Shown here piece after piece: positions 6,928 through 7,137 of a stretch of 37,974 nucleotides of DNA (the first letter of the stretch is position 1; every line of letters begins with the position of its first letter). Source of the stretch: a virus (Duplodnaviria; Heunggongvirae; Uroviricota; Caudoviricetes); the IMG/VR virus record IMGVR_UViG_2778261505_000008, positions 1-37,974 of that record; one strand, written 5' to 3'. The notes beneath the pieces are model-generated. The model saw only the letters and a program-made list of their open reading frames with translations, did no database searches and had not been told where the DNA came from. The translations under genes were made by a program, and so were the position numbers.

Positions 6928-7137
6928 AAAGAAGACTTCCAATAATCAGAACAAGTCGGCTCCTGTTTAGTTACGAGCGACATTGCTCCATGTATTCACT
7001 CGTTGGAATGAATACACAGTGCAGTGTTTATTAGTATGCCTGTCTTTTAACCACATCAGGCTCGGTGGTTCTCGTGTACCCCTACAGCGAGAAAAATAGT
7101 AAAATCCTCTTACCCCTACAGTAAGAGAGTGATTTAT

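Follow-up and report, generated by a model that had tools for sequence, protein, structure and literature searches.

The window, i.e. the whole stretch of 37,974 nucleotides of phage DNA that was analysed, includes the left arm of a lambda-like immunity region, and this arm is the setting of the repeats described here (Table 1). The rightward gene between the repeats and N, in the following called the cargo gene, lies in the pL operon beside N and convergent with it, and has ea10 and kil to its left, which is the position of the corresponding gene in phage P22. Leftward transcription from pL beyond N would be antisense across this gene and across the approximately 120 bp preceding it, the cassette. 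The initial annotation had called the cargo a moron; in a PDB sequence search its product was 98% identical over 162 amino acids to the solved Rip1 of E. coli (PDB 9oox, chain L). In PHROGs the protein of 164 amino acids falls in phrog_1244, the function of which is unassigned and which is different from the SieB phrogs, and searches of Pfam, PADLOC and NCBIfam gave no match for it. A 2026 review (PMC13434031) describes Rip1 as a prophage-encoded protein that assembles around the small-terminase or portal rings of an infecting phage to form a lethal pore.

Some further features of the arm were recorded. The window contains a match to the Rfam cIII thermoregulator at 6400-6454 on the minus strand (77.5 bits, E = 1.6e-18), and thus both cIII and its RNA thermosensor are present. 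An open reading frame of 158 amino acids (8251-8727, minus strand) lies immediately downstream of a CI-like repressor gene (8652-9284), in the position of rexAB in lambda, and is likely to be a further accessory or defence gene of the prophage. The ral and orf28 genes of lambda and P22 are missing at approximately 7031-7036 of the window (compared with lambda 34,056-34,400), and the cassette abuts the conserved hairpin and terminator block preceding ea10. Each cargo type was found in both arrangements, with and without ral.

Table 1. Features of the cassette and its surroundings in the window, and the duplicated motifs of four relatives.
Feature	Position	Strand	Basis or remark
kil	6195-6434	-	
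ea10 (DUF2528)	6514-6882	-	
Intrinsic terminator, hairpin (6908-6929) and T-run	6901-6929	-	Terminator scan; just upstream of ea10
Long imperfect hairpin with the inverted repeat (6991-6998, 7009-7016) at its top	6980-7027	-	Folding
Predicted sas-like antisense RNA	7021-7142 (approximate ends)	-	Homology to the 127-nt P22A-sas read-out
H-type pseudoknot (two interleaved helices)	7038-7070	-	Helix covariation
Hairpin H_B, UUCUCG-C-UGUA-GGGG-UACA-CGAGAA	7069-7093	-	Folds; pair counts; compensatory variants
-10 hexamer TAAAAT of the sieB-type promoter	7100-7105	+	Aligns with the P22 -10, TAAACT
Hairpin H_A	7102-7135	-	Folds; terminator scan
Repeat copy 2; A7112 is the predicted rip1 mRNA start	7111-7121	+	P22 annotation and alignment
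rip1 (ring interacting pore 1), cargo, 164 aa	7138-7632	+	Convergent with N
N, lambda-type antiterminator gene	7625-7948	-	Pfam N36, E = 1.6e-26; ORF list
Duplicated motif CCGCAACGTAA of relative L271 (Rip1-type cargo)	537-584 of L271		
Duplicated motif CCCCAACGT of relative L396	4301-4343 of L396		
Duplicated motif ACCACAACG of relative L490			
Duplicated motif CCCCAACAG of relative L502			

The inverted repeat TGTATTCA-N10-TGAATACA is present at 6991-7016 as it had been annotated. Zero matches to the exact pattern are expected in shuffled sequences; perfect 8-bp inverted repeats as such are common, with 79 pairs having arms at most 12 nt apart in the 38-kb window. The idea that this repeat forms part of the promoter module of the moron did not hold, since the repeat is part of another, near-invariant block of the leftward operon, which ends short of the cassette boundary at approximately 7036. 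Over 6937-7032, more than 300 phage records share 95-99% identity with this block of 100-150 bp, too little variation for a covariation test. In lambda the repeat is found at 34,014-34,039, between ral and ea10, and in the window it adjoins the cassette because ral and orf28 are absent. On the minus-strand RNA the hairpin has 14 contiguous pairs, a 4-nt loop and approximately 20 bp overall, and the extended hairpin (6978-7030) is predicted to be more stable on the minus strand (dG -22.4 kcal/mol, z -5.9) than on the plus strand (-21.0 kcal/mol, z -4.3). A second predicted hairpin and a terminator follow it leftward (z -4.1). The hairpin at 6908-6929, which had been called tL1-like, is homologous to lambda 33,931-33,952 upstream of ea10, and the homologous hairpin of phage mEp234 is annotated as a rho-independent terminator; the lambda hairpin we take to be a member of the tL2 cluster, not tL1.

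The inverted repeat is thus most readily interpreted as a hairpin formed in the RNA transcribed leftward from pL, with no relation to the moron promoter; its role might lie in processing, stability or pausing. A dimeric protein operator would also have perfect 8-bp arms with a 10-bp spacer and could be near-invariant in more than 300 phages. However, the complementarity extends well past the 8-bp arms into a hairpin of approximately 20 bp that is better paired on the minus strand, the repeat sits in the leftward operon beside a predicted terminator and one more predicted hairpin, and in lambda, where it follows ral, 400 bp separate it from the sieB promoter. We consider such an operator quite unlikely.

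The direct repeat TACCCCTACAG was found at exactly 7077-7087 (copy 1) and 7111-7121 (copy 2), with no third site in the window even when one mismatch was permitted (0.23 matches expected; two or more in 2 of 100 shuffles). It lengthens to 16 nt at 88% identity, with a spacing of 34 bp. Also the TAAAAT element was where it had been placed, and the view that the direct repeats bracket the -10 of a rightward moron promoter was borne out by a base-for-base alignment with the annotated sieB promoter and RNA start of P22. When positions 6883-7137 were compared by BLAST with phage records, 390 records matched, and the P22 match coincides with a feature annotated 'sieB: promoter'. In the P22 records the promoter spans 29690-29720, and the annotated start of the sieB RNA, 29727, coincides with the A of ACCCCTACAG, the homologue of copy 2 (checked base by base). 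The moron promoter is, by this alignment, a homologue of the mapped P22 sieB promoter, and with A7112 as the predicted start the first ten bases of the rip1 mRNA would be ACCCCUACAG, i.e. copy 2.

When the window is aligned with HK629, lambda and P22, copy 1 occupies -34 to -25, which on the DNA is the -35 region of the promoter. Both copies are invariant among the window and these three phages; the sequence from the -10 to the ATG otherwise diverges, and the downstream genes differ. The -35 hexamer of the window promoter is poor. In all 59 relatives compared, and likewise in all four cassettes with variant motifs, copy 2 is preceded at a distance of 6-7 nt by a TAnnnT hexamer. The constraints on the DNA, i.e. 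those of the -35 and of the initial transcribed region, fall on the same bases as the copies and are inseparable from them by sequence analysis. Readings of the repeat motif as a sigma-32, sigma-28, CII or boxA-like element were dropped by eye, the partner elements being absent.

A side observation concerns the sieB gene of lambda (locus L003 1083-1160, lambda 34,482-34,559). A start at the A of copy 2 puts its annotated ATG approximately 11 nt from the 5' end of the mRNA, where the start codon would lack a Shine-Dalgarno sequence, and a downstream ATG with GGAGAG (L003, approximately 1156) looks better. The annotated lambda sieB may be too long.

The cassette is collinear with a known antisense RNA of P22, and a leftward RNA is therefore predicted also here. 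A 127-nt RNA, P22A-sas, is listed in a small-RNA study of P22-infected cells from 2026 (PMC13397905, Table 2), its ends resting on read coverage in this single study. It is the reverse complement of locus L001 1185-1311 and aligns with approximately 7021-7142 of the window. The RNA begins at the sieB start codon, carries both copies as CUGUAGGGGU, and stops 17 nt past the GCCUG/CAGGC helix. According to a review, sas was originally sized at 105 nt; this size would place its end by the same helix, which ends at nt 110. The review also states that sas stops SieB synthesis during the phage's own growth. In the window, the predicted complementarity covers the 5' UTR, the Shine-Dalgarno sequence and the AUG of rip1. 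A conserved and convincing leftward promoter for the antisense RNA was searched for and none was found, and an Rfam cmscan of positions 6900-7140 (E ≤ 10) gave only matches at the level of chance.

Folding of the minus strand gave three domains in the window and in approximately 55 distinct relatives, and in every variant tested the minus strand folded better than the plus strand. Compensatory changes in relatives support each of the three domains. In hairpin H_A, the 5' arm is the antisense of the rip1 5' UTR with its Shine-Dalgarno region, the top is copy 2, and the 3' arm derives from the -10 region. The stems of H_A vary in sequence and yet exist in nearly all variants. In cassettes of the P22 type, CCGAT just before the sieB ATG pairs with ATCGG of the promoter spacer (L001 1290-1306 and 1259-1264), which on the leftward RNA forms the base of a hairpin of approximately 50 nt enclosing copy 2.

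Copy 1 supplies the 5' arm and the GGGG tetraloop of hairpin H_B. According to pair counts in the alignment 97% of the H_B cells are paired, and compensatory variants were found in L300, L396, L502 and L271. Substitutions giving G.U outnumber those giving A.C by 21:2, favouring the minus strand, though the fixed arm is rich in U and G and biases this strand test, so that the count is supportive only.

The third domain is a pseudoknot of two interleaved helices, S_a, formed by AACCAC (7049-7054) with GTGGTT (7065-7070), and S_b, formed by GCCTG (7038-7042) with CAGGC (7057-7061). Read on the minus strand it has canonical H-type geometry, with L1 and L2 always short and L3 always A-rich. The topology is kept with at least 12 different S_a and at least seven different S_b sequences. 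Since MAFFT misplaced helices that were shifted in register, column counts understate the covariation, and a per-sequence helix search was used instead: a score of at least 10 paired positions was reached by 85% of the distinct relatives as against 5.6% of the shuffles. The pseudoknot forms the left boundary of the cassette (approximately 7036), near the approximate 3' end of P22 sas, and helix variants were seen in such relatives as L086, L109, L297 and L358. A reading of TTAACCACA/TTATCCACA within the pseudoknot as a DnaA box was rejected, as the covarying relatives lose the box and retain the pairing.

The predicted first ten nucleotides of the mRNA are complementary both to the 5' arm and loop of H_B and to the top of H_A, and the same is true in the four cassettes with variant motifs. 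The predicted folds expose CUGUA in H_A and GGGG in H_B, which together make up the complement of the mRNA 5' end, each contributing one half. The H_B hairpin that would have to be opened is predicted at -9.3 kcal/mol and the 10-bp duplex at -17.3 kcal/mol.

Relatives of the cassette were gathered with a pattern of both copies, with the cargo proteins and with a pattern of the pseudoknot. Of these, the loci anchored on cargo proteins form a sample unbiased toward the presence of the repeat. The pseudoknot-anchored pattern, TCAGGCGGCNGNGGNTC, was mostly non-specific (true cassettes in 3 of approximately 120 stretches). The SieB-like cargos, when all were aligned as proteins, proved too diverse for scanning, and a scan of genome contigs with a narrower SieB-like alignment gave three loci only.

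In related prophages the direct repeats proved to be strongly conserved. Both exact copies were present in 25 of the 28 distinct upstream regions of proteins near P22 SieB or the window protein. The SieB homologues of Yersinia pekkanenii and Phytobacter, with 53-55% protein identity, also have both exact copies at a spacing of 34 bp, with differing flanking bases. A further 60 distinct upstream regions were sampled by way of proteins 27-100% identical to Rip1 or lambda SieB: two exact copies were found in 31 regions and one exact copy with one single-change copy in 20, so that 51 of the 60 hold two copies with at most one mismatch, while the other nine include rearranged loci. As the copies differ by one base in these 20 regions, strict identity is not required. 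Fifteen of the 20 differences are C-to-T changes in copy 2, with which G.U pairing with copy 1 on the antisense RNA is still possible. Exact direct repeats of at least 8 nt at a spacing of 30-38 bp occurred in 10 of 1200 shuffles.

Four relatives, L271, L396, L490 and L502, have a different motif in both positions (Table 1). Within each of them the copies are mutually identical and 33-34 bp apart, and the pseudoknot, H_B, the -10 and H_A are all retained. In L300 and L303 both copies have ACAA, and the opposite arm of H_B shows a compensatory change. In every motif class the repeated unit comprises the loop and one arm of H_B and begins at the predicted +1. The concerted motif replacements represent only four to five independent events. 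Both copies being swapped together at the same positions argues against a fixed protein site. As judged from these sequences, selection acts on the match between H_B and the first bases of the mRNA and not on one particular sequence, and the pattern favours pairing between an antisense RNA and the 5' end of an mRNA, as in RNA-OUT and RNA-IN of IS10. The motifs of the four relatives may represent specificity classes. Disrupted cassettes were also seen: in L182 other sequence has taken the place of the promoter region to within a few bases of copy 2, and in L262 the 5' portion of rip1 has given way to an unrelated transposase-like sequence.

At least nine unrelated types of cargo were found downstream of the cassette, namely P22-type SieB, lambda-type SieB, two Rip1-like subfamilies, a protein of 80 amino acids, a membrane protein of 105 amino acids and three further proteins. 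It occurs in phages of different immunity regions, and the 125-bp cassette was found in 988 of 5426 complete E. coli genomes (approximately 18%). Positions 7021-7142 of the window thus probably constitute a portable control cassette of lambdoid prophages, consisting of a PsieB homologue and an overlapping sas and here attached to rip1.

The cassette is probably transcribed in both directions, and we propose that it works as an antisense switch in which the repeat copies are capture sites; to this explanation as a whole we assign a probability of roughly 0.6. In the repressed prophage, a sigma-70 promoter with the -10 hexamer listed in Table 1 and a weak -35 would express Rip1 rightward from A7112. 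During lytic growth, transcription from pL and N, or from a local start, would cross rip1 and the cassette leftward, and its product would be a stable, structured RNA of approximately 105-127 nt, the structured 3' part surviving as a sas-like RNA. This RNA would cover the start codon, Shine-Dalgarno sequence and 5' UTR of rip1 and extend past the mRNA start into H_B and the pseudoknot, the latter probably defining or protecting its 3' end. The two repeat copies would then give the antisense RNA two sites that match the first ten mRNA bases by complementarity, one at the top of H_A, in the true antisense register, and the other in the loop and 5' arm of H_B. Both sites would capture the mRNA 5' end and nucleate pairing from there through the start codon. 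By analogy with P22, the pairing would block translation of Rip1, and the phage's own terminase or portal rings would then trigger no suicide. There is good support for the identity of the region and its structures; a capture role for copy 1 and the logic of self-protection we infer from P22 and from the covariation pattern. What a second capture site gains over the fully complementary H_A region is not obvious.

The two copies might instead belong to a tL1-like attenuator, in which they compete for the 3' arm UACAG and so set termination against read-through, the mRNA 5' end being uninvolved. A hairpin at 7106-7128 followed by ATTTTACTATTTTT was indeed flagged as terminator-like on the minus strand of the window, and the CUGUA of both copies complements the single UACAG arm. 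The U-rich tail that follows H_A in the window is, however, missing in L053, L125 and L033, and as it is not conserved H_A is probably not a general terminator. Furthermore, the reported P22 RNA reads through the point of copy 2, and the repeated unit always takes in the loop bases (GGGG or GCGG), for which competition between arms has no need, and begins at the predicted +1 in all motif classes. An attenuator therefore appears unlikely.

The initial annotation had suggested that the direct repeats bind CI, Cro or another regulator. As DNA operators at -35 and +1 for a phage or host repressor or activator, the copies would flank the -10 at approximately three helical turns (34 bp), and both their strong conservation and the poor -35 hexamer, which is typical of factor-dependent promoters, would fit. 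This suggestion was not upheld: with differing immunity regions and at least nine unrelated cargos no regulator linked to the cassette is apparent, and in L271, L396, L490 and L502 both copies are replaced together while the pseudoknot and, in L271, the Rip1-type cargo are unchanged. The substitutions opposite copy 1 preserve G.U pairing, as expected of RNA, and many relatives have an extended -10 (TGn) or a consensus -10 that needs no activator. Taken together, these points make operators quite improbable. A further reading is that the direct repeat has no function and was left behind, for instance by a small duplication or by recombination between modules at their boundary, and then travelled on a promoter segment that spread recently, as the >90% identity of most cassettes in E. 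coli and Salmonella phages could suggest. This is very improbable, given that both copies are retained at 27-55% cargo identity with changed neighbouring bases, that repeats of at least 8 nt at such spacing were rare in shuffles, and that differing motifs are duplicated at the same two positions.

If the copies are capture sites of an antisense switch, a more speculative extension is that the duplicated motif is a specificity code, by which a phage that enters or is induced silences, through its antisense RNA, the defence mRNAs of other resident prophages in trans. As nearly all cassettes, irrespective of cargo, have predicted mRNAs sharing the first ten bases, the antisense RNA could dock on mRNAs of other prophages. 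We regard this extension as rather improbable. If it were true, the rare cassettes with CCGCAACGTAA, CCCCAACGT, ACCACAACG and CCCCAACAG would be escape classes from cross-silencing, similar to the incompatibility groups of plasmids with antisense control, and the cassette would be both a device of self-protection and a counter-defence weapon in the conflict between prophages and phages.

Rip1 and SieB both kill the infected cell, and a prophage carrying either must therefore shut it off during its own lytic growth. The antisense switch would make the cassette a compact and portable answer to self-killing by prophage defence genes. As the gene following the cassette is a candidate defence gene, the cassette can serve as a signature in the search for new defence genes of prophages.

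Among known systems, lambda oop with cII and P22 sar with ant are likewise short, structured antisense RNAs, by which temperate phages reset gene expression upon a change of lifestyle. They differ from the cassette in their loci, targets and structures, and to our knowledge neither of them has a duplicated target-complementary motif. In IS10, RNA-OUT has in its loop and along the 5' flank of its stem the complement of the first bases of RNA-IN, and the ribosome binding site falls within the paired region. The window cassette has no sequence relationship with IS10, and it differs also in having the capture motif twice, the second time beyond the true antisense overlap, and in being followed by a pseudoknot. 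Upstream of the lambda sieB gene (34,397-34,481), the pseudoknot, H_B and copy 1 are identical to those of the window and copy 2, ACCCCTACAG, is equally spaced; there the cargo is SieB, and the lambda record has no promoter or RNA annotated at this site.

The closest counterpart is PsieB and sas of P22 (Ranade and Poteete 1993, as cited in PMC12197685 and PMC13397905). The two cassettes are homologous from the pseudoknot to the RNA start, share the position of the -10, the start base and both copies, and occupy the same site between N and gene 24 on one side and the ral and ea10 side of the pL operon on the other. In P22 the leftward RNA is complementary to an exclusion gene that the prophage expresses, over its start codon and 5' UTR, and the RNA of the window is predicted to be alike. 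The differences are that the cargo in P22 is sieB/esc and in the window rip1, that the sequences of the 5' UTR and of the H_A stem differ, and that P22 has ral and orf28 to the left whereas the window is without both. Because the cargo is Rip1 and not SieB, the switch from SieB to Esc, two products in the same frame, cannot be assumed here, which leaves the cassette itself unaffected. According to a summary in PMC13434031, the founding rip1 of Pseudomonas was located between the terminase genes (Patel et al. 2026), unlike the rip1 of the window, which lies in the sieB slot by N under a sieB-type cassette. By sequence, position and structure, the window cassette is a member of the P22 PsieB/sas family, of which the promoter and the antisense RNA were already known. 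As far as checked, the new elements are the pseudoknot, the duplicated motif complementary to the mRNA 5' end, both copies of which evolve in concert, and the association with Rip1 and other cargos, by which the recently described Rip1 is tied to sas, an antisense RNA 30 years old and little studied.
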